DNA of 64,000 nt, taken from sequence record HM114315.1; one strand, written 5' to 3'. Each line of letters starts with the position of its first letter. The first letter of the stretch is position 1. Source of the stretch: Acinetobacter phage 133. Shown in pieces: positions 33,375-49,717 of the stretch. The notes below the pieces were generated by a model, which did not search any database, was not told where the DNA came from, and saw only the letters and a list, made by a program, of their open reading frames with translations. Made by a program: the position numbers and the translations under genes.

Positions 33375-33905
33375 TTAATGTTTGTAACGCCAAATGAATC
33401 CAAGAGATGTTTTGTTTCCATCGCTTAAATTCAATCGAGCACATGTAGATATTAAATCATTTTTTCTGAAGCATGGAGAAGAAATTGATTCTCCTGCGTC
33501 CATTGGTGATCGGTACACGGCCAGGATATTTCCTGTAATGGGTTCGATCTGAATAACTGGAGTTGCTGCCCATCTCGCCCGGGCACTAATCTTGGCGCAC
33601 GTATAAGACGATACATATCGCCCAGTTGCTTGCTCAATTACTTTGGCACGCTTAATTACATATGCCTTTGTACCTTGAGAACACATAAAATTCCAAGCGG
33701 CCCGCATTTCGGGGGAGTCTGGATAAATCTTACGCAATAACATATGTGCAAGACAATGTTCTCTTGGAGTCAAGGCAACCAGGTTTGATGGGTGGTCGGT
33801 ACCACCCAAAGATCTAGGCACAATGTGGTGTACTTCTTTAGGCGACGGTTCAGGGCGCTGACCAGCAATAGTCACGAGTTGATTATAGATCTTTAGGTAA
33901 TCCAT
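33375..33905 (-). CDS. HNH homing endonuclease
   Basis: Classic HNH motif VHHIVPRSLGGTDHPSNLVALTPREH near the N-terminus. Free-standing gene immediately upstream of uvsX. Confidence 0.75.
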   Translation of the reverse strand: MDYLKIYNQLVTIAGQRPEPSPKEVHHIVPRSLGGTDHPSNLVALTPREHCLAHMLLRKIYPDSPEMRAAWNFMCSQGTKAYVIKRAKVIEQATGRYVSSYTCAKISARARWAATPVIQIEPITGNILAVYRSPMDAGESISSPCFRKNDLISTCARLNLSDGNKTSLGFIWRYKH

Positions 33906-34357: not shown

Positions 34358-34751
34358 CTACCAATACTTCACCATCCCAGAAACGTACTTTATACTGAGG
34401 CTTAAGATCGCCAATACCACCTTCTGATAAAGGCCACCCATCAGTGGTGTCTAATGAGAACACAACTTCGACAATGCAAGGTTCCAATTTCAGCGCTTTA
34501 TCACGTTGTCGGGTAATGTTGGCAGTAGTCAAACAAATATCTGATTCCCGATCACGGGAGAATTCTGAAAAATTACGACCGAACTCGGTTATAACCCATA
34601 CCCATTTTGACCCCACTCGCTCTACTTCACCAGGCAATACTTTGAAGCCCATAATATCAAAAGGTACACCTTGCTTAAAAATATATCCTTCGAAAGTGCC
34701 GCATTCAATGCCAAAGGGTTTAAGTTCGCGATAAGGTAATTTCATTTTCAT
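34308..34751 (-). CDS. hypothetical protein (147 aa)
   Basis: Minus-strand ORF. Confidence 0.5.
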   Translation of the reverse strand: MKMKLPYRELKPFGIECGTFEGYIFKQGVPFDIMGFKVLPGEVERVGSKWVWVITEFGRNFSEFSRDRESDICLTTANITRQRDKALKLEPCIVEVVFSLDTTDGWPLSEGGIGDLKPQYKVRFWDGEVLVVVEPMESNPLHWVLFN

Positions 34752-36986: not shown

Positions 36987-37327
36987 TAGTACATGTCCTC
37001 AGAATATAAAGTACCAGGTTGACCCGTAACACGACGAATTTGATTTGCATTCTTTGCAACTTCCCAGGCTTCTTCCCGTGTTAAGAAATCACGACGGTTT
37101 GATACAAAACCTTGATCCCAATCATGATAACGCACAAGTTCCCCAGACGGAGTGTGTGAACCAAAAATTTTATCTGTAATTTCGTAAAAGTCTGGAGACC
37201 CGTGACGCTTACACATAACCACAAGACCATCCGGGCTACGATTTGCTGCGCTAATAATAATCTCAGGTAACTCAATATAACCTGTACGTTCATTTACATC
37301 TTTAAGAGGTCGACCGGTCATTTGCAA
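36986..37327 (-). CDS. hypothetical protein (113 aa)
   Basis: Minus-strand ORF. Confidence 0.5.
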   Translation of the reverse strand: MQMTGRPLKDVNERTGYIELPEIIISAANRSPDGLVVMCKRHGSPDFYEITDKIFGSHTPSGELVRYHDWDQGFVSNRRDFLTREEAWEVAKNANQIRRVTGQPGTLYSEDMY

Positions 37328-37659
37328 TGCTCCTGTACAATATTCAAGTGTTTCAGTTTAAGATCCAAAAAGGAATCTCGTTGTACTTCGCCCGTAGAGA
37401 GGGCTTGCTGTTTACCATCGCGATTATACACAATTTTATATGTTACACCACGACCTTTAGAACGAATTTGAGGAAAAATCAAACATTGTCCTCGATCGCT
37501 AGCGATCATCATTTTTACAGATCGCGACACATACTCAGATTGGACTTTACCAGATAATGCATATTCGGGAACCTCATTACCATGGGCTGGACAAAATGCA
37601 CCGCCGATACCCAAAGCAAGAATAATACCAGTGCTGATAAGAAAACTACGAGGGCTCAC
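37318..37659 (-). CDS. secreted/periplasmic protein with N-terminal signal peptide (113 aa)
   Basis: MSPRSFLISTGIILALGIGGAFCPAHG. ATGA overlap with imm, as for T4 imm.1. Confidence 0.5.
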   Translation of the reverse strand: MSPRSFLISTGIILALGIGGAFCPAHGNEVPEYALSGKVQSEYVSRSVKMMIASDRGQCLIFPQIRSKGRGVTYKIVYNRDGKQQALSTGEVQRDSFLDLKLKHLNIVQEHCK

Positions 37660-37910
37660 ACAGATGCTCCCATTCCAAATAGCAATACCATAATTGCGAC
37701 TGCAATTGTCAACCCAGTAACAACAAGAAAGTTTTTAAAACTTGTGTTAAGCACGGCCATAATTAACGCTGCAAACCAACCCACAATAGTCCAACCAAGA
37801 CAAGTATTGATTAGAAAAATAATCATTGCTGGTGCAGCTTGGCCTTTCCAAGCAATAAAGGTTGGATAAAAATATACCAACACAAATAAAATACCGACAG
37901 TTAAAATCAT
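37656..37910 (-). CDS. imm: Imm-like superinfection immunity membrane protein
   Basis: 84-aa two-to-three-helix membrane protein immediately downstream of gene 43, matching T4 Imm (83 aa) in size, hydrophobicity and position. Confidence 0.55.
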   Translation of the reverse strand: MILTVGILFVLVYFYPTFIAWKGQAAPAMIIFLINTCLGWTIVGWFAALIMAVLNTSFKNFLVVTGLTIAVAIMVLLFGMGASV

Positions 37911-37925
37911 AGTTAAATTCCATAT

Positions 37926-37956
37926 GAATATGGCTCATTATAAACGAGCCATATTC
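37926..37956. promoter_or_regulatory. 11-bp perfect inverted repeat (GAATATGGCTC ... GAGCCATATTC) with a 9-nt loop containing a TATAAT-like sequence on the minus strand
   Basis: Lies between the gene 43B stop and the imm start. No U-tract follows, so it is probably a regulatory or processing hairpin rather than a terminator. Confidence 0.4.
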
Positions 37957-37973
37957 AATTGTACAACTTTATT

Positions 37974-39152
37974 TTAGAAGAAATCAAACATATCTGCCAA
38001 TGATGCACGATGTTCATAATGAATATCACATGCTGTACATAAAGCTTGCAATGGTTTAATGAATGATTTGGTGAATAGAGCAGGGTAATCAATTGCATCA
38101 ATTACGTCTTGTCGAATTTCCCGGGGCAATTCTGTTCCAGACGGCCATGCGATCGATTCAGAGTCAAACATATTGCCAGGTTGAAGAGGGAGTATCATTA
38201 CTTTTTCACCTTCACGAATTCGGACCATGCCTGGGAATCCGTCCGCGATTCGGTGATAGGCTAATACTGCTTTGATGTGGCCTGGGCATCCTTTAATTGG
38301 CAACCCCTTCGAGTCACTATATTTGGCAATATTATTGGCAGACGAAACTGATGCAATAGTTTTATAGTTCAATTGACGATACTCTTTTTCGTACTTCAGG
38401 AAGTATTCGTGCAATGAACTTTCACCTTCAATAAGCATCAGTCGAATTGACTCTTTTAATGCTTTTTGTACAGATTTTGGTGTGCTTGATTTCTGAGTTT
38501 CAAGGCCCATGATCTTAAGTTTAGGCTCAACAAAACGAACCCCTTCCATATCCCACACACAAAGAGCGTATCGTTTTTTCGCGGTCCAGAATCCACCCAA
38601 CCCGTGAGAACCGATTGGAGGACAAGCAATAGCTTCTCGGTCCATGAACATTAAATGTTCTCGGTTATTCATGTACTCGCATAGCTCACGATATCCTTTG
38701 TCAATGACTGGTTCCATGTTGTTCTTGCCAAATTTGTCCAGGAAGTCAACCAGCTTAGTTGTGGTGTCAAATTTGTCCATACCGAGTTTATTGATCAATA
38801 GTTCAACGTTTACATAGATAGAATCCGTATCACAATAGAAAACATACTCAAAGTTTGTGGTACCACATAATTGATTGAGATACTCATTTACTTTCCGGGC
38901 AATCCACTGAATAGCTACACGACCAAAGGTTGTAATGGCCGTTGCATTGCGCAGATCATACATACGGAAGTGAATGTTGCCCAGTGCACCGTATAATGAA
39001 TTTAATAAAATTTTTCGGTTCTGCTGGTTTGTGTCGCATTTTATTTCGTATCCATTACATTCAGCCAAGATGCGTTTAAGCTCTTCGTCCGTACATGTTT
39101 CAAGATACGCAATCTCGTCTTCATTAAATTTAATGCCGTAGTTTAATTCCAT
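37974..39152 (-). CDS. 43: DNA polymerase, C-terminal cistron (43B: fingers/palm/thumb)
   Basis: 392 aa from MELNYG (RBS GGAGACATA). Family B motifs KILLNSLYG (motif B) and YCDTDS (motif C). Colinear with T4 gp43 residues ~520-898. Confidence 0.9.
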   Translation of the reverse strand: MELNYGIKFNEDEIAYLETCTDEELKRILAECNGYEIKCDTNQQNRKILLNSLYGALGNIHFRMYDLRNATAITTFGRVAIQWIARKVNEYLNQLCGTTNFEYVFYCDTDSIYVNVELLINKLGMDKFDTTTKLVDFLDKFGKNNMEPVIDKGYRELCEYMNNREHLMFMDREAIACPPIGSHGLGGFWTAKKRYALCVWDMEGVRFVEPKLKIMGLETQKSSTPKSVQKALKESIRLMLIEGESSLHEYFLKYEKEYRQLNYKTIASVSSANNIAKYSDSKGLPIKGCPGHIKAVLAYHRIADGFPGMVRIREGEKVMILPLQPGNMFDSESIAWPSGTELPREIRQDVIDAIDYPALFTKSFIKPLQALCTACDIHYEHRASLADMFDFF

Positions 39153-39162
39153 TATGTCTCCA

Positions 39163-39195
39163 AAAATAAAAAGGACCACTAAGGTCCTTAATTAT
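39163..39195 (-). terminator. terminator hairpin (AAGGACC-ACTAA-GGTCCTT after A-tract) immediately upstream of 43B
   Basis: 7-bp perfect stem preceded by AAAAATAAAA on the plus strand. Confidence 0.5.
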
Positions 39196-39206
39196 ATCAA
39201 ATATGA

Positions 39207-39512
39207 CTAAAGCATACGGGCCGGCATATAAGGTGTATTTTTAGCACCTTTTACAGGAACCATAATGCGATCTTCAGACAACATTGTTCTGCACTTTTTA
39301 CACATTGTAATAGTTTCAACTTCAAACATTCGAGACGTTTGAGCATTGCGTTTACTCGCTTGAGTAAAATATGCCTTATGGTTAAATCCCGTGTTTTCAT
39401 ATTTGCCAGTGTATACCCCACGAGTCATTGGATCATGCTCGCAACGAAGTTTAAGTACAATTAATAAACGTTGAATCATTTTCTGTAAAAATTTCATAAT
39501 AAATTCCTTCAT
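39207..39512 (-). CDS. small Cys-containing hypothetical protein (101 aa, possible zinc ribbon)
   Basis: C..H.. and CKKC pairs. Last ORF of the gene 43 insertion. Confidence 0.45.
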   Translation of the reverse strand: MKEFIMKFLQKMIQRLLIVLKLRCEHDPMTRGVYTGKYENTGFNHKAYFTQASKRNAQTSRMFEVETITMCKKCRTMLSEDRIMVPVKGAKNTPYMPARML

Positions 39513-39583
39513 TGGTTTCGTTCATTGTATATTATATTATAGCTTAAGTACATCTATTTAAATTAACCCATCATTGGACACAA

Positions 39584-40321
39584 TCATAATTCCAATTTCC
39601 CGGCAAATTGGGCAATAGGTAGCCACTCTGTTTCTGATTCTTCATCATCTGCCCATGCAAATAATAATTGATCTACAGGACGCGGTGGTTGAGGGCTATG
39701 ACGGATTACATTGACCCATAGTTGCATAGATCCAGACGGCCCTTGCACAATTTCACTAATTGGATACCCTTGAAATAATTCTAAACCTTTATCATCCGTA
39801 ATATGGCGCACCATCACGCCAATTAAGGGATGAATAGGTTTCAAAGGCTTTCCCTCGGGTAAATCATCTAATTGGTACACAATGATGTCCAAATTCGGCG
39901 TTACTTCATTGATGATTTGTTCAATTACAGCCCAGTCACCACCTGCAATTCCAGCACCAATTTTTGGGATACCTACTTCAGGTCGACCTACTATAATGGA
40001 TGGTAAAATGAGGTCTAATTTTGTGAATAATGCGCGAATTGCGGTGTACAGATATTTAGGATCTGCTCGGCCTGGATTAAATTGTGTGTACCCGTTAACA
40101 ATTTTTCCATATGGTGTTTCGGCAAGCGTATATCCACCCCGTTTATCTCGACCATATTGGGTCAGCTTGTCAGCATCATACGCAACTGGAAATTGCTTTG
40201 CAATAGCCGCAGCGATACCAGCGCCCATAGTATGGAAGCAATTGCATCCATGCACAATAGCATCAAATTTACGCTCGCGGAAAGCGTCAAGTAAATCACC
40301 TTTTACGTATTGAGTAATCAT
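39584..40321 (-). CDS. macro-domain (ADP-ribose binding/processing) protein
   Basis: 245 aa from MITQYVKGDLLDAF. DAIVHGCNCFHTMGAGIAAAIAKQFP resembles the macro-domain signature VNAAN..L..GGGV.GAI. TAATG coupling with the upstream ORF. Confidence 0.65.
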   Translation of the reverse strand: MITQYVKGDLLDAFRERKFDAIVHGCNCFHTMGAGIAAAIAKQFPVAYDADKLTQYGRDKRGGYTLAETPYGKIVNGYTQFNPGRADPKYLYTAIRALFTKLDLILPSIIVGRPEVGIPKIGAGIAGGDWAVIEQIINEVTPNLDIIVYQLDDLPEGKPLKPIHPLIGVMVRHITDDKGLELFQGYPISEIVQGPSGSMQLWVNVIRHSPQPPRPVDQLLFAWADDEESETEWLPIAQFAGKLEL

Positions 40322-40623
40322 TATTTCTCCTCCGAATAAATGATGCATTGCATGAAAGTATGATAGTCCAAATACACGGTGTCGAGTCCGTCATCACAGT
40401 CAGCCCAAGCAAAATTCAAATAACAATCATCAAATACTTTGCCATCGTTGGTGTAAATTTTCAATCGAGGTGACATATTAGTATCAAAATATGAACGGAC
40501 CTCAACAACATGGCCTGTGATTTCAGGATGAGTTTTATGTTGGTATATTACACCAATTAACGGGTGTAATATAGTAGAGGGCCAGTTAGTCGTACCCTCT
40601 AAAATAGGTAAATGTGGAATCAT
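40321..40623 (-). CDS. hypothetical protein (100 aa), third gene of the coupled cassette
   Basis: ATGA overlap upstream, TAATG overlap downstream. Confidence 0.5.
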   Translation of the reverse strand: MIPHLPILEGTTNWPSTILHPLIGVIYQHKTHPEITGHVVEVRSYFDTNMSPRLKIYTNDGKVFDDCYLNFAWADCDDGLDTVYLDYHTFMQCIIYSEEK

Positions 40624-40904
40624 ATTTGCACTCCAAAGAAAGCAGTTAATACTTTAAACGGACGATTCAACGCCTGGTCAGTTAATAGACTATCGGTAGC
40701 CACCATGGTTACCAATTCAGGGCCGCCGTTTGGGCATTGAACATCAAGTGAAACTTTTAAATTACGTACAATATCATCAATTGTTCCACGGTGATTAGGC
40801 ATGGTATTCAACGCTTGATCAATAACCGGGTGTAATTCAACAACAAAACCATCTAGTCCAGGTTGGATAATCATTGGACCAACCATAATGTTAAACTGAT
40901 GCAT
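40620..40904 (-). CDS. hypothetical protein (94 aa), second gene of the coupled cassette
   Basis: Start set at MHQFNIMVGP. The ORF track's 154-aa form has an L/R-rich wrong-frame-like N-terminal extension. Start overlaps the stop of the 74-aa ORF (ATGCATCAGTTTAA). Confidence 0.5.
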   Translation of the reverse strand: MHQFNIMVGPMIIQPGLDGFVVELHPVIDQALNTMPNHRGTIDDIVRNLKVSLDVQCPNGGPELVTMVATDSLLTDQALNRPFKVLTAFFGVQI

Positions 40905-41115
40905 GTTCTTTCTCCGAATAGAAAGTATCAATTTTTTGCGTAACCTCATCCATTGATGCCGCGTCAAATGACGGATGATCAATAAGTGGGCAATACGCTT
41001 CCCAAGAAGTTTCAACCATACCACACCCACATTGGCATGAGCTAGCTGAAGAGGAGAGGTGATACTCGCGGTAAACGATTTCACCCTTTTCTACTGAAAT
41101 TGTAATCTGGCGCAT
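40891..41115 (-). CDS. small Cys-rich protein (74 aa, CQCGCG...C), first gene of the coupled cassette
   Basis: Protein-like composition in the overlap region. Preceded by an early-type promoter. Confidence 0.45.
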   Translation of the reverse strand: MRQITISVEKGEIVYREYHLSSSASSCQCGCGMVETSWEAYCPLIDHPSFDAASMDEVTQKIDTFYSEKEHASV

Positions 41116-41144
41116 GTTAATCTCGCGTTTGTTGACATGGAAGA

Positions 41145-41174
41145 ATATTAAACCAATAAAAATATTTTGTAAAC
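41145..41174 (-). promoter_or_regulatory. T4 early-type (sigma70) promoter: -35 GTTTAC, 18-nt spacer, -10 TAATAT (minus strand)
   Basis: GTTTAC matches the T4 early -35 consensus. It lies between the upstream terminator and the first cassette gene. Confidence 0.4.
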
Positions 41175-41182
41175 CCTAAAAC

Positions 41183-41204
41183 GAAAAAAGGTCCCGAAGG
41201 ACCA
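41183..41204 (-). terminator. terminator hairpin (GGTCC-CGAA-GGACC after A-tract)
   Basis: Perfect 5-bp GC stem preceded by AAAAAA on the plus strand. Confidence 0.45.
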
Positions 41205-41210
41205 TAAACC

Positions 41211-41531
41211 CTAGTTGTACTCTTTCTCGTCTACGTAAAACTCGATATCATGCATAATCCCATCGACAGTAACAACACCGGTTTCAAAATTAACATCCTT
41301 GACAAGAAATTTTACACGCCATGGATCAATTGTCCATCCAAATGGAGCTTTGCGATACGGACAAACATAATGTGCATTTGTAATTGTTTTGATTCCATCT
41401 TTAGTATTGATTTGGATTCCAGGGGCTCCAACGAATTGAACTACCCAACGTTCAGAAATGGTGTTACGAATGAAATCGTTATCCGTTGTCAATTTAACTT
41501 TTGATGAATCGAAAGAACTAACTTTAGCCAT
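41211..41531 (-). CDS. hypothetical protein (106 aa)
   Basis: Minus-strand ORF within the gene 43 insertion. Confidence 0.5.
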   Translation of the reverse strand: MAKVSSFDSSKVKLTTDNDFIRNTISERWVVQFVGAPGIQINTKDGIKTITNAHYVCPYRKAPFGWTIDPWRVKFLVKDVNFETGVVTVDGIMHDIEFYVDEKEYN

Positions 41532-41541
41532 ATCAGTTTAC

Positions 41542-41835
41542 TCATTTTGTTGCATGATTTGATAGAAACTCGTTACGAGCAGCGTTTTGCAAGTCGCGTA
41601 CGAATTGAGTTTTTTGATCTATATCATCCCAACGAACACCATATTGCAGATACCCTTTTTCATCCAGCATCTGGTTGATGCTGGCAATGATCTTTGCTGG
41701 CACTCGGACGCCATTATTAGGACCCAGTGAAAAACAACGGTTATTTTTTAAGGTGAAAATAAGACTAGGAAGCACGATAATTGCACGCATATTATTTCTC
41801 CACAGAAGTGTCAACAGGACGAACAGAATCAACAT
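41542..41835 (-). CDS. hypothetical protein (82-97 aa)
   Basis: Minus-strand ORF; the start may be the internal MRAII. Confidence 0.4.
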   Translation of the reverse strand: MLILFVLLTLLWRNNMRAIIVLPSLIFTLKNNRCFSLGPNNGVRVPAKIIASINQMLDEKGYLQYGVRWDDIDQKTQFVRDLQNAARNEFLSNHATK

Positions 41836-42073
41836 AAACCAGGTTTGCAGTTAGTGCTTTCAGTTCAAGGTCTAAGTTAAAAATAGTAGTGTCATTAATT
41901 GGTTCACCGATGTAACGGTGTAAGGCCGATTCGATATTTGCAACAACTTGTTTATTTGCAAGACGGTCAGCATGGTGAATATCCATTTTAATTGGGCATC
42001 CAGCTTGTACTGTAATTTTTACCATGCCGTAATCAAGAACAATTGGTTGTGTAGCAGATTGGATCAATTTCAT
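41792..42073 (-). CDS. hypothetical protein (93 aa), first ORF after 43A
   Basis: ATGA overlap with the 43A stop. Confidence 0.5.
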   Translation of the reverse strand: MKLIQSATQPIVLDYGMVKITVQAGCPIKMDIHHADRLANKQVVANIESALHRYIGEPINDTTIFNLDLELKALTANLVYVDSVRPVDTSVEK

Positions 42074-43590
42074 TTTTTACGTCTCGCAAGTATTGATTTA
42101 ATTACCTCGGCATTTTGTTCTGCCGTGATCATTTTTTTCTTCCATTCTTTACGCTGTACAAACATTTTAGTGGTTTCAATAGGAATGATTCCCTCTAAAA
42201 CTTTATCGTACATCATACCGTTTGGAGCACAACTAAATTCGGAGCTAGGTCTTGGAGCAGTCTTATCAATATACTGTTCCTGCGTACCGGGGCTAAACAT
42301 ACCACGAATTGTTTCGGGGCTAATATTGACCTGGCGAATAATGCTCGGGTACAAACTTGTTAAGTCAAAGCTCATCACATATTTTTGAAGACTTGGTGGA
42401 ATCTCTTTAACAAACGCACCAGGGAACTTCTGTTTAATGTGGCTTTGTGACTCAGGCAATACTACCTTGGTTTCTTTAAGCGAATTGAATAAAATCGCAT
42501 CCCATGTTTTTACCGGCGAAAGTACCGATCCAATGTTGATCTTAGCGTAATACGCCAAAGCAAGAGACAAGTCAATGAATCCGCGCTTTTTATCAATCAT
42601 CTGTACACAGTACACATCAATGATGTTATAGCTGATGTAACGTTGGTGGTTGGTCTCACGGAGTTTGTTAATAGGACCATCATACTCTAATTTTGAGACA
42701 TCTGTCTCCGCTTCAGAAATATAATCCAATGAATATGACGGTTGAGTCGTAAAGCCGAACTTTTTGTACAAGTCCATATAGTCAAGCACGTTAATTCCAG
42801 CAATGGTGAATAACTCGGCTTCATTATCATACTTATCCCGCATGACTTTTGAAGTTACACGACCAAAAGGTGACATACGCTTGACGAATGTCTGACCCAG
42901 CACATTCTTGATGCGGTTCATCACATATGGAATATCGAACTTGTCACAGTTCCAACCGGTCAACACCGCAGGAGGTTTCTGCTCAAATAAGTTGATATAC
43001 TCAAGCAATAATTCTCGTTCATTGTCAAATGGCATATAGACAACACGATCTAAAATGTGTTGAGGTACCATGTCCCCGCCTTCAGCTTCGGCCTTAGCCG
43101 CTATTTTCGCGCACCATTGATCCACAGTGGCCGATGTACTATGAGTTAAGTCAAATACATAGTAAGCATCATCAATTGAGTCATAATGTGTTATGGCATC
43201 AATCTCGTACACTGCAAGCATTGGTTCAGGGAAGTCAATACCGGTTACCTCGATGTCAAAATAAACAGTGCGGATTTTGGACTTATCGAATTCAACGTCG
43301 TCCTTGTAGATATCGCTGATATACGCCAGACGAAAGTCGTCCATGCCCATAATTTCAACGATGCCTTTTGTCTCGCGCATCCACTGTCGACAAGATGAAA
43401 TCCCATCAAACTTACGAGGTTTAGCATACTTTCCATAGATGTCTTTGTATTCAGACTCATCTTGGGTATGTACGAACATTGTTGGACCATAGTTAACCGA
43501 TCGAATTTGATCCTGTCCATCCACATCAATGTAACGCTCTAAAATTTCACCCCGATTGATGTCAACGTTAATATAAAATTCAGGTTTCAT
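42070..43590 (-). CDS. 43: DNA polymerase, N-terminal cistron (43A: N-terminal and 3'-5' exonuclease domains)
   Basis: 506 aa from MKPEFYINVD (RBS GGAG). Colinear with T4 gp43 1-~500: Exo I FDIEV, DAITHYDSIDD, NIIDV, YISYNIIDV, SFDLTSLYPSIIRQVNISPETIRG. Ends at a stop, after which unrelated ORFs follow. Confidence 0.9.
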   Translation of the reverse strand: MKPEFYINVDINRGEILERYIDVDGQDQIRSVNYGPTMFVHTQDESEYKDIYGKYAKPRKFDGISSCRQWMRETKGIVEIMGMDDFRLAYISDIYKDDVEFDKSKIRTVYFDIEVTGIDFPEPMLAVYEIDAITHYDSIDDAYYVFDLTHSTSATVDQWCAKIAAKAEAEGGDMVPQHILDRVVYMPFDNERELLLEYINLFEQKPPAVLTGWNCDKFDIPYVMNRIKNVLGQTFVKRMSPFGRVTSKVMRDKYDNEAELFTIAGINVLDYMDLYKKFGFTTQPSYSLDYISEAETDVSKLEYDGPINKLRETNHQRYISYNIIDVYCVQMIDKKRGFIDLSLALAYYAKINIGSVLSPVKTWDAILFNSLKETKVVLPESQSHIKQKFPGAFVKEIPPSLQKYVMSFDLTSLYPSIIRQVNISPETIRGMFSPGTQEQYIDKTAPRPSSEFSCAPNGMMYDKVLEGIIPIETTKMFVQRKEWKKKMITAEQNAEVIKSILARRKK

Positions 43591-43645
43591 CAATTTCTCC
43601 AAAAAGCATCAGAACTAATTTTAACATTTAGCCCTGATGCAAATG

Positions 43646-44002
43646 TCATTTGCCAATTGTATACTTTGGAACTAATTTCCATTCTGCTTTTTGAGAGTGT
43701 TTAATAATACGGAAGTTATTGGTTGGTACCAAGTCAGTCTGGGTTTCAATCTGGCATAAATCCCAAGACTCAAGCATTGTTGCGATAGATAAAGTACGTA
43801 CTTTATCTTCTTCGGTAATATCAGTTGGTTTACCATCAAGCTTCAAGAGGTCTTTGAAGTGTGCAATATAATAGCGGCCTTGCTTTTGCAAAATGTGGCA
43901 ACTTTGGTACAATACTTTGTCACGGCTATTGGCAATGCCCATGCGAGTTAGGGTTTCTTTAATCTGTAAGAATGCACCTTGATGTGGAGTAATTTCAATC
44001 AT
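43646..44002 (-). CDS. regA: RegA translational repressor
   Basis: 118 aa, near-colinear with T4 RegA (MIEIT..., KETLTRMGIAN..DKVLYQSCHILQK.G.YYI.HFK, EWKLVPKYTIG). Confidence 0.92.
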   Translation of the reverse strand: MIEITPHQGAFLQIKETLTRMGIANSRDKVLYQSCHILQKQGRYYIAHFKDLLKLDGKPTDITEEDKVRTLSIATMLESWDLCQIETQTDLVPTNNFRIIKHSQKAEWKLVPKYTIGK

Positions 44003-44562
44003 ACTAATTTCCTTAACTCTTTTTGAGTTTTTACATTTTTGGTGATGGTTTTTAAAAACGCATCAGTTACATAAGAAGAACAACGTTTCAGGTCAGACTC
44101 AAGACGGCCATTCTTTGTAAGAATTGTTTTGTACATTTTGGCATCGAGTTCATTGATATCATATAACAACATCAATAAGCGAATGACAAAGGTTTCTTTA
44201 ACGTCTTCATCAAGCTTGGCTTTAGATGCATATCGCTTGCCATGAGGAACTGCGTGCAGAAGATATCTAAAATGATCCTGGTCGCGCAATGTCTTGATAC
44301 CCAGGTTTGCCATATAGGCAGGATACAATGCGTCTGTATGGAGAGATAAGAGCTCAGTAATTAAGAACTTTGAATATGAGTCATCAACCATACGATGCTG
44401 CTTAAGATGATTAATCGCATTTAAATTTGCGAATAACTCAGACTCAGCAGATTCTTTATAGGAATCTGCTAGCTCTTTAACTTTTGCCCAATCTTTATCT
44501 TCCCATGCTATTTGATGCTCATTTAATTCGGGAGCTTGGATAAGATCAGTCAATAAGAACAT
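43999..44562 (-). CDS. 62: clamp loader small subunit
   Basis: 187 aa, same length as T4 gp62. ATGA overlap with regA, in the conserved position between gene 44 and regA. Confidence 0.8.
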   Translation of the reverse strand: MFLLTDLIQAPELNEHQIAWEDKDWAKVKELADSYKESAESELFANLNAINHLKQHRMVDDSYSKFLITELLSLHTDALYPAYMANLGIKTLRDQDHFRYLLHAVPHGKRYASKAKLDEDVKETFVIRLLMLLYDINELDAKMYKTILTKNGRLESDLKRCSSYVTDAFLKTITKNVKTQKELRKLV

Positions 44563-48446: not shown

Positions 48447-49456
48447 TCAATCCACAACTGTTTAACCATATGTTTAATTGCAACGACATCTTCGGGGGTA
48501 CACTCCGGCATTGATGCTACATATTCATCCATTAACTCAGGCATTGACTTGATGGTCAAATCAATTTCTTCACCTTCTGCTAATTCAATGGAATTATCAA
48601 TACCTGATACCGTGCGCAAACTATGTACCACTTTTTCCAATTCATTTTCAAATGCCGGTAAATTCTTATCAACCGCTTCAATAACAACCCGCACCGACTT
48701 ATTTTTGAATTTTGAAAAATCAATGTCTGTAGCTGGGTAATAAATCTTCTCATGCCACATTGTTTCATTTTCAATGAAAGTGTACTTACGAGTTTCAGTG
48801 TCTAGGATTACAAATCCGCGAGGATCATTCTCATCACCAGCCGTTAAAGTATACGGGGTGCCAATATACTCGATGTTGCCTTTCTTTGATCGGGTGTGAA
48901 AGTGGCCAGACACGACGTGTTCGTATTTGGATAAGAAATCCGATTCAATACCATGAGATTTCAGTCCCTTGTAGAACCAGAACCCATTTAATTCCCAATG
49001 CCCAACACAATGGGTCGCAGCTGAGGTTTTAATATGTGTTAGGATTTCACTTGTATTGGTACTACACATCCAAGGAATAAGATCAATCCAGAGTCCATCA
49101 TAATCAACGGTAGTCGGTTTATCGTACACCTTGATATTGCTGTAATGTGTGAGTAACTCGGTGCAAGCGTTTGGGTTAACCGTATTTTTATGGTGCATAT
49201 CATGGTTGCCCACGATCACATCAATTTCAATACCTTCCGCAGCAATTTGTTCACACATCTCACGGTTAAATTCTAACGTGGTATGAGTAATCGCTTTGCG
49301 CACATCAAACCAGTCCCCAGTCTGAATCCACTTTTTAATACCATATTTGCGGCTAATTTCAATTGCTTGGCGAATACCATCGCGTTGAATAAATTGAATC
49401 CAGGGGTCATCCTGTTTAGCACCAAAGTGTAAATCGCCCAAATGTAAAATTTTCAT
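48434..49456 (-). CDS. 47: recombination endonuclease subunit (SbcD/Mre11-like nuclease)
   Basis: 340 aa. Phosphoesterase motifs MKILHLGDLHFG, GDWFD, GNHD and GHFH. Confidence 0.9.
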   Translation of the reverse strand: MKILHLGDLHFGAKQDDPWIQFIQRDGIRQAIEISRKYGIKKWIQTGDWFDVRKAITHTTLEFNREMCEQIAAEGIEIDVIVGNHDMHHKNTVNPNACTELLTHYSNIKVYDKPTTVDYDGLWIDLIPWMCSTNTSEILTHIKTSAATHCVGHWELNGFWFYKGLKSHGIESDFLSKYEHVVSGHFHTRSKKGNIEYIGTPYTLTAGDENDPRGFVILDTETRKYTFIENETMWHEKIYYPATDIDFSKFKNKSVRVVIEAVDKNLPAFENELEKVVHSLRTVSGIDNSIELAEGEEIDLTIKSMPELMDEYVASMPECTPEDVVAIKHMVKQLWIECTA

Positions 49457-49459
49457 TGT

Positions 49460-49717
49460 TTAACTGCCTCGTGAATGGTCCAAAAGAAAATCATTACTCG
49501 TCAGACCGCGTTTGCATAAAGTTGTTACTACTGTAACGCCCCCGGTCGAAGCAATAAAGGCATTACCAACATAAACTTTGACGCTTTTTGTACAGCGTTT
49601 ACTCCGTGTAAATCGAGTCTTTAATTCATACCGGTACAATTTGTAATTGCCCATGTGTAAACCATAAAATAGTGGTGGTAAAGGTTTAAAAGGTTTAGTT
49701 TTCATATCATACTCCAA
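49460..49717 (-). CDS. hypothetical protein (85 aa)
   Basis: Minus-strand ORF. Confidence 0.45.
   Translation of the reverse strand: MEYDMKTKPFKPLPPLFYGLHMGNYKLYRYELKTRFTRSKRCTKSVKVYVGNAFIASTGGVTVVTTLCKRGLTSNDFLLDHSRGS

Follow-up and report, generated by a model that had tools for sequence, protein, structure and literature searches.

Acinetobacter phage 133 carries its DNA polymerase gene 43 in two pieces, and the 64,000-nucleotide stretch of its genome that we analyzed (HM114315.1; hereafter the window) raises the question of whether these pieces are working parts of one enzyme and what the eight open reading frames (ORFs) lying between them are. Our answer, which we hold with high confidence, is that two cistrons, 43A and 43B, each translated on its own and separated at the fingertip, encode the family-B polymerase, and that the intervening 2.9 kb are an old, inherited and still-changing accessory region. 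The split polymerase of phage 133 is already known, since it is the published type case (GenBank AAT38486-AAT38494, 2004; Petrov et al. 2006, J Mol Biol 361:46, as cited in PMC3061061). To that case we add a comparison with later genomes and wild relatives; the population-level polymorphisms, and the relocation of a macro domain with its fusion to a resident ORF, are minor additions.

Gene 43A (42070..43590, minus strand) encodes 506 amino acids (aa) from the ATG at 43590, within an ORF that spans 42070..43602, and ends at a TGA stop codon in the fingertip. Gene 43B (37974..39152, minus strand) encodes 392 aa from the ATG at 39152, within an ORF of 37974..39179. The initial annotation had described the two ORFs as colinear with the N-terminal part and the remainder of T4 gp43, and the alignment agrees, with T4 residues 3-502 matching 43A and residues 512-897 matching 43B. 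The two products add up to 898 aa (506 + 392), which equals the length of T4 gp43. Gene 43A contains the N-terminal domain, the 3'-5' exonuclease, palm motif A and the first finger helix, with FDIE111 (Exo I), NCDKFD214 (Exo II), YNIID321 (Exo III) and DLTSLYPS409 (motif A) all present. Gene 43B contains the second finger helix with motif B (KILLNSLYG47), palm motif C (DTDS108), KKRY192 and the thumb, and its C-terminal tail (ASLADMFDFF) can be aligned to the end of T4 gp43. In Pfam terms, 43A has DNA_pol_B_exo1 and the beginning of DNA_pol_B, which continues in 43B. Each cistron has its own ribosome-binding site, GGAGA at 43600..43596 for 43A and GGAGA at 39161..39157, 4 nucleotides (nt) from the ATG, for 43B, as had been claimed for the latter. 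In T4 numbering, 43A stops after residue ~502-510, in the stretch that links the two finger helices, and in the joint alignment the break column is at ~T4 residue 510, in the variable fingertip ahead of motif B. This column is identical in Ac42, Acj61, ZZ1, Aeromonas phage 44RR and the window, so that the break does lie where the known splits are, as first proposed. The canonical gene context 44-62-regA-43-imm is retained.

We considered whether gene 43 is in truth continuous, with the insert or the stop codon being a sequencing or assembly error. The concern is legitimate in principle, since the first assembly of phage ZZ1 contained spurious split genes (PMC4177764). However, the 43A stop, the overlap of c1 (the first insert ORF) with it and the 43B start all recur in contigs assembled from seven separate sequencing runs, at nucleotide identities of 73-99.9%. 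Wherever these contigs cover the locus, the order 43A stop, c1 and/or c7 (the last insert ORF), 43B is reproduced across runs. The GenBank record of phage 133 is identical: 43A and 43B match exactly its gp43A (AAT38486.1) and gp43B (AAT38494.2), and eight RefSeq protein numbers fall between YP_004300660 and YP_004300669, in agreement with the eight insert ORFs. Six other annotated phages have the same architecture, and the PCR-checked genome of ZZ1 also has a split gene 43 (PMC4177764). An artifact thus has practically no chance of being the explanation. In the wider searches, a nucleotide search of the phage collection without the phage 133 record returned only short matches of 72-80%, and the nearest relative in an IMG/VR scan with 43B was just 58% identical. 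The exact look-up of 43B on contigs found nothing, although a 43B cluster exists.

The two halves could also be decaying remnants of a gene whose working counterpart lies elsewhere, a reading favored by the fact that our inspection covered 64 kb of the genome. Against it, all exonuclease and polymerase motifs are intact, the gene context is conserved and no further gp43-like segment was found in the 64-kb window. Moreover, 43A shows 8 synonymous and 0 non-synonymous differences from the sibling phage L007, while 43B shows 43 synonymous and 4 non-synonymous differences from three siblings, which corresponds to pN/pS values of 0-0.04 for both genes. These ratios indicate that both halves are working genes under strong purifying selection, and we consider it extraordinarily improbable that they are pseudogenes.

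Yet another way to obtain a conventional enzyme would be to remove or bypass the 2.9 kb, through a group I intron, an intein, a split intein or a ribosomal hop, so that a single polypeptide is made. Elements of these kinds do occur in gene 43 of relatives: motif A of 43A is interrupted by an element of group I intron type in siblings of phage 133, and motif C of 43B by what looks like a split intein in two distant metagenomic phages (L014 and L020). In phage 133 itself, a search of 37000..44500 against Rfam gave no intron match up to E = 1 (one chance sRNA match aside). The insert has its own putative promoters, two terminator-like hairpins and eight ORFs that are under selection, and there is no room for intein halves because 43A and 43B already equal T4 gp43 in length. 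The initial annotation had excluded an intron or intein that restores the reading frame, and we agree; the probability of removal or bypass is negligible.

Splits of this kind have precedents. According to PMC3061061, citing Petrov et al. (2006, 2010), the gp43 cistrons lie from 2 bp (Aeromonas phage) to 3 Kb (Acinetobacter phage) apart, and the fingers domain was already called a hotspot for insertion elements; the same source, citing Petrov et al., gives the fingertip split as characteristic of the 133/44R/31/25/65 sub-family. We found annotated 43A and 43B genes in Ac42, Acj61, Acj9, ZZ1 and AB1I1M-1 (Twarogvirinae), where they are 1.9-4 kb apart and separated by 6-10 small co-oriented ORFs. 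Like phage 133, the other Acinetobacter T4-like phages have the identical break column (Ac42, Acj61, ZZ1) and c1-type and c4b-type genes in constant order, with proteins 60-65% identical to those of 133. In Aeromonas phage 44RR2.8t, by contrast, the gap between the cistrons is only ~50 bp and gene-free, compared to ~2.9 kb with eight ORFs in 133; what the Aeromonas and Acinetobacter phages have in common is the break column and a 43B N-terminus of the form M-x-L-x-F..F..EE..YL.

We compared all-against-all the inserts of phage 133, Ac42, Acj61, Acj9, ZZ1 and AB1I1M-1. Two genes, c1 and c4b, are present in all six in constant order, and c1 is always the first ORF past 43A. In addition, c5 and the C-terminus of c6 match Ac42p091 and c7 matches Ac42p089, in corresponding positions. 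Since c1 and c4b are common to all six, the insert is old and inherited, with turnover. The turnover is visible in c2, c3, c4 and the macro module of c6, which are found only in the insert of the phage 133 lineage; elsewhere the macro gene and the c3 homologue are 26-70 kb away. The cargo consists of ancestral residents (c1 and c4b, and with Ac42 also c5, the c6 C-terminus and c7) and of genes that are sited elsewhere in relatives (the Tk.4-type macro domain and c3). As to whether the cargo is shared or novel, a point raised by the initial annotation, sharing holds for c1 and c4b among the Acinetobacter phages and fails for 44RR and for the genes peculiar to the 133 lineage.

The alternative is that the insert is a recent, phage-specific event, in which a mobile cassette or a homing endonuclease entered an intact gene. 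It draws on the 82% identity between phage 133 c3 and its Acj9 counterpart at a different locus, as against a gp43 identity of ~60-65% to the nearest annotated relatives. It also draws on the lack of c3 in the sibling L031, on the location of the macro gene elsewhere in relatives and on a homing endonuclease gene in the gap of some siblings. The constant order of c1 and c4b in all six inserts, the counterparts of c5, the c6 C-terminus and c7 in Ac42, and the break column that is identical across phages all speak against it. So does the absence of any homing endonuclease, by family matches (Pfam, PHROGs), among the eight ORFs of 133. We therefore judge a recent insertion very improbable and retain the old, inherited accessory region as the better description. 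The gap of 133 also differs from 'genes in pieces' of the mobE/nrdA type. In Aeh1 nrdA/mobE and T4 39/60 mobA, an essential enzyme is made as two reassembling polypeptides with an endonuclease in the gap (Friedrich et al. 2007; reviewed in PMC2988022), whereas the gap of 133 holds eight non-endonuclease genes.

The eight insert ORFs, which we named c1, c2, c3, c4, c4b, c5, c6 and c7, are all co-oriented, and three of their start codons were corrected using ribosome-binding sites, overlaps and homologues; with these corrections, the multi-gene insert originally described as splitting gene 43 stands. All are on the minus strand. The ATG of c1 (41792..42073, 93 aa, phrog_21960) overlaps the 43A stop as ATGA, and the gene shows 2 synonymous and 0 non-synonymous differences. 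It is followed by c2 (41542..41790, 82 aa from an internal ATG), which is confined to the phage 133 lineage, is 88% identical in L031 and shows 3 synonymous and 0 non-synonymous differences. The next gene, c3 (41211..41531, 106 aa, Acj133p085), is an exact match to a phage 133 protein and belongs to phrog_18665 (8e-58), a family restricted to Acinetobacter T4-like phages and normally found ~70 kb from gene 43. The cysteine-rich product of c4 (40891..41115, 74 aa) is specific to the phage 133 lineage, with an L031 copy of equal length and 82% identity. The true start of c4b (40620..40904, 94 aa, phrog_36432 at 5e-56) is an internal ATG of a 154-aa mechanical ORF, and the gene differs from its L027 counterpart by 35 synonymous and 6 non-synonymous changes. 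Start/stop overlaps recur at c4b/c5 and c5/c6. The product of c5 (40321..40623, 100 aa) is paralogous to the C-terminal domain of c6 and to Ac42p091, and the three have the motifs PLIGV and FAWAD-DDE-ET-WL in common. The largest product, that of c6 (39584..40321, 245 aa, tk.4), matches AAT38492.1 exactly and joins a macro domain to a C-terminal module. Finally, c7 (39207..39512, 101 aa, or 96 aa from the ATG at 39497) is the last ORF ahead of 43B, as is its homologue Ac42p089 in Ac42. The ratios of synonymous to non-synonymous differences (12 to 0 for the macro gene, 35 to 6 for c4b) indicate that the cargo is under purifying selection.

Within the insert, the L027 allele of c4b (268-552) shows 85.6% nucleotide identity, while the adjoining c5 and c6 show 99.7%, a contrast that indicates mosaic recombination inside the insert.

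The close relatives of phage 133 also differ in what they carry at this locus. The insert of siblings L031 and L032 has no c3, and c2 runs directly into the terminator and early promoter. This presence/absence polymorphism can be delimited to positions 41203-41578 of the window versus L031:13136-13154, with the flanking terminator and promoter conserved. Siblings L027 (2003-3037, minus strand) and L032 (15158-16192) have a gene for a 344-aa HNH homing endonuclease (phrog_655, 9e-28), which lies on the opposite strand between c7 with its hairpin and 43B, at the equivalent of window 39163-39152, and which phage 133 does not have. The first ~105 nt of 43B in L027 and L032 are a diverged allele, with a return to near identity at the EIKCDTNQ codons. 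A diverged 43B start beside the endonuclease gene is what homing with co-conversion would be expected to leave behind. The gene 43 split of Aeromonas phage 25 is associated with an endonuclease gene too, of the seg type (GIY-YIG) according to PMC2988022, unlike the HNH gene on the opposite strand in the siblings of 133.

A second element, of ~1.1 kb, interrupts motif A of 43A (DLTSL|YPS) in L031, L032, L033 and L035 (L031:11233-12352; L035:11233-12353), between the equivalents of window codons 413 and 414, near 42352-42359. It encodes an HNH endonuclease of 276/277 aa (phrog_12434, 1e-100) and is flanked by group I intron matches in Rfam that are sub-threshold (~22-23 bits); its boundaries fit group I rules, with exon 1 ending in U and the intron in G. 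The same element occupies the identical site in gene 43 of coliphage ECD7 (L039), at ~68% nucleotide identity. Pfam gave no match for either homing endonuclease (344 aa and 276/277 aa), and both were identified through PHROGs. Phage 133 itself is the intron-less and endonuclease-less allele. With the endonuclease, the motif A intron and c3 all varying among close relatives, the polymerase gene appears to be still invaded and remodelled in the present-day population. The proposal that the break is a tolerated hotspot, already published, gains support from this polymorphism in gene content.

We located candidate expression signals in and around the insert, all on the minus strand, including the two terminator hairpins and the early-type promoter that had been noticed at the outset. 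From sequence and fold, a hairpin of 13 bp (43606..43640, about -15.9 kcal/mol), followed by a U-run, stands just past the regA stop and just ahead of the 43A ribosome-binding site, and could be the regA terminator, a leader structure of 43A, or both. A terminator-like hairpin, GGUCC-UUCG-GGACC followed by U6 (41190..41203), comes after c3 and closes the 43A-c1-c2-c3 unit. A T4 early-type promoter motif, GTTTACA-17 nt-TAATAT (41145..41174), precedes c4. Both are conserved in L031. Toward the end of the insert, a motif that resembles a MotA-box middle promoter, TGCTTTA-11 nt-TATAAT (39191..39214), overlaps the c7 stop codon. This pattern occurs 6 times in the window versus 1.56 expected, a number reached in 0 of 100 shuffles, and five of the six occurrences are on the coding strand. 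Upstream of the GGAGA and ATG of 43B lies another hairpin, AAGGACC-UUAGU-GGUCCUU (39171..39189, -10.1 kcal/mol), followed by a U-run, which could terminate cargo transcripts, act as a 43B leader structure, or both.

These motifs suggest a layout of three transcription units. In the first, c1-c3 would be read together with 43A, through ATGA start/stop coupling, up to the terminator with the UUCG loop. The second would comprise c4-c4b-c5-c6, and possibly c7, and start from the GTTTAC early-type promoter. In the third, 43B would be expressed from the MotA-box-like middle promoter just upstream of the hairpin, and this hairpin would terminate incoming transcripts.

The leaders of the two cistrons have a further feature in common in other Acinetobacter phages (L001, L002, L003, L029, L030), where both 43A and 43B share an (A)CCC(T) element ~8-12 nt before GGAG, which could be a translational operator common to the two genes. 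In phage 133 the leaders of both cistrons have a hairpin, a U-run and GGAGA in its place.

How could two chains make one polymerase? In the RB69 and T4 gp43 structures, a variable tip connects the two antiparallel helices of the fingers, and the palm is assembled from segments on either side of them. An active site can therefore form only if the two chains pack against each other. In phage 133, catalytic motif A is on one chain (43A) and motifs B and C are on the other (43B), each with a separate translation start. By analogy with Aeromonas phage 25, gp43A and gp43B would associate non-covalently, and residues of both chains would build a single active site. The phage 25 products are reported to co-purify with polymerase activity (PMC2988022). 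The locus is a natural example of a family-B polymerase that tolerates a break at the fingertip, a tolerance that has already been exploited in polymerase engineering with a split Pfu enzyme (PMC3061061).

When and how often the split arose is less clear. We built a simple neighbor-joining tree of the concatenated gp43 of the window, L001-L006, L008, L009, L024, L029, L030, L037 and L038. In it, T4 and CC31, both unsplit, fall within the split Acinetobacter phages, and 44RR is weakly paired with the unsplit Phi1. A single origin of the split was sought in this tree and was not borne out, as split and unsplit phages are interleaved. It is possible, but doubtful, that the fingertip was split independently several times (in 133, in other Acinetobacter phages, in Aeromonas phages and in L014/L020), as opposed to a single split in a shared ancestor. 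The interleaving would fit such recurrence, and so would the distant metagenomic phages, which also break at the fingertip and carry unrelated cargo. Conversely, the Aeromonas and Acinetobacter phages have the identical break column and a similar 43B N-terminus, 133 has cargo in common with other Acinetobacter phages, and the tree behind the proposal is a simple one with several weak nodes (43-66%). The tree would also accommodate another reading, which we consider improbable, in which the continuous gene 43 of the T-even phages is a secondary re-fusion of an ancestrally split gene.

At the break itself, T4 has nine extra fingertip residues, KGAGSCSTK, precisely where the split phages have a stop and then a Met, which leaves room for such a re-fusion in the T-even lineage.

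The two distant metagenomic T4-like phages (L014:4134-9771 and L020:4834-9771; IMG/VR UViGs 3300037320_000108 and 3300037321_000056) have an organization of their own. Their 43A ends at the fingertip and is followed by five unrelated small ORFs (~1.5 kb), and their 43B appears to be broken in turn at motif C, where 'YGDTDS|VIGST...' is followed by an ORF (344 aa in L014, 124 aa in L020) and then by '...ILVHN|SLYLS'. From its sequence, this second break apparently resembles a split-intein 'fractured gene'.

Several points weigh against our interpretation of the phage 133 locus as two fingertip-split cistrons around an old accessory region. The split phages are not monophyletic in the gp43 tree, which does not establish a single ancient origin. 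The search for another polymerase gene covered 64 kb of a genome of 159.8 kb (159,801 bp). The association of gp43A with gp43B is extrapolated from phage 25, and the promoters and terminators are assigned by consensus matches, from which their use is deduced. Finally, the GTTTAC pattern as such shows no significant enrichment in the window (5 found versus 2.3 expected), and because of this the putative early promoter rests on its position and its conservation in L031.

Among the cargo genes, c6 is the one whose product can best be related to known proteins. Its residues 1-150 are the orthologue of T4 Tk.4 (40% identity, E = 1e-34), and the gene belongs to phrog_335 (7e-65) and shows 12 synonymous and 0 non-synonymous differences. 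The Pfam Macro score of 19.9 bits is under the curated cut-off of 22 bits. At the sequence level, the domain matches the PDB entries 2afc, 6lfu, 5m3i and 4j5r, and its invariant GxG and GAGIAGG columns are the glycine-rich ADP-ribose-binding loops. The PADLOC DarG model matches at 4e-8 over profile positions 3-143 of 329. In the AlphaFold model, most blocks of residues 1-150 have a predicted local confidence (pLDDT) of 87-96, and Foldseek returned a probability of 1.00 to the Poa1p, TARG1 and DarG macrodomains. These residues are thus a Tk.4-type macro domain of the Poa1p/TARG1/DarG class. The remaining ~95 aa form the C-terminal module, paralogous to c5 and predicted to be all-beta, with a fold that is not confident (block-mean pLDDT 36-74); tblastn with this domain gave no match across the phage records. 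The fusion of macro domain and module is found only in the phage 133 lineage among ~1,100 homologues. In T4, Tk.4 is encoded between tk and vs, ~31 kb from gene 43, and has no such module, and in ZZ1 and other phages the macro gene is standalone, ~150 aa long and far from gene 43. In phage 133, by contrast, it is fused and located inside the polymerase gene.

During infection, the most probable role of the macro domain is to take ADP-ribose off a target, either protein or nucleic acid. A macrodomain is what DarG2 antitoxins employ, and resistance to DarTG2 persists in T4 that lacks adfA and adfN (PMC11825919), which makes an anti-DarT role a reasonable hypothesis for c6 by analogy.

A DarG antitoxin of a DarTG2 system was rejected as an identity for c6. 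DarG has a DarT-binding C-terminal half and an adjacent darT, whereas c6 has neither: its C-terminus is an unrelated module of the 133 lineage and there is no neighboring ADP-ribosyltransferase.

The protein could still act like an orphan antitoxin. A more elaborate proposal, to which we give little credence, is that the relocated and fused c6 is an orphan DarG2-like antitoxin that would strip ADP-ribose from phage DNA. Its position between the polymerase halves would then serve to have it produced along with the replisome, which might also recruit it. If this were true, the cargo would have a functional link to replication and would be more than a passenger picked up at random.

Other endonuclease-like genes lie away from gene 43. 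Directly upstream of uvsX, a 176-aa ORF (33375-33905, minus strand) has an HNH-type motif (EVHHIVPRSLGG...N...H) and is 45% identical over 53 aa to the 344-aa endonuclease of the siblings; a homing endonuclease, either free-standing or degraded, is a possible identity. Just beyond it (~34405-34717), the identity to sibling L026 falls from 98% to 86%. In the gene 46/47 neighborhood, L035 has an extra gene for a 286-aa endonuclease (L035:3278-4138; phrog_10820, with a weak GIY-YIG match), which phage 133 does not carry at the corresponding site, ~49437-49465 of the window.

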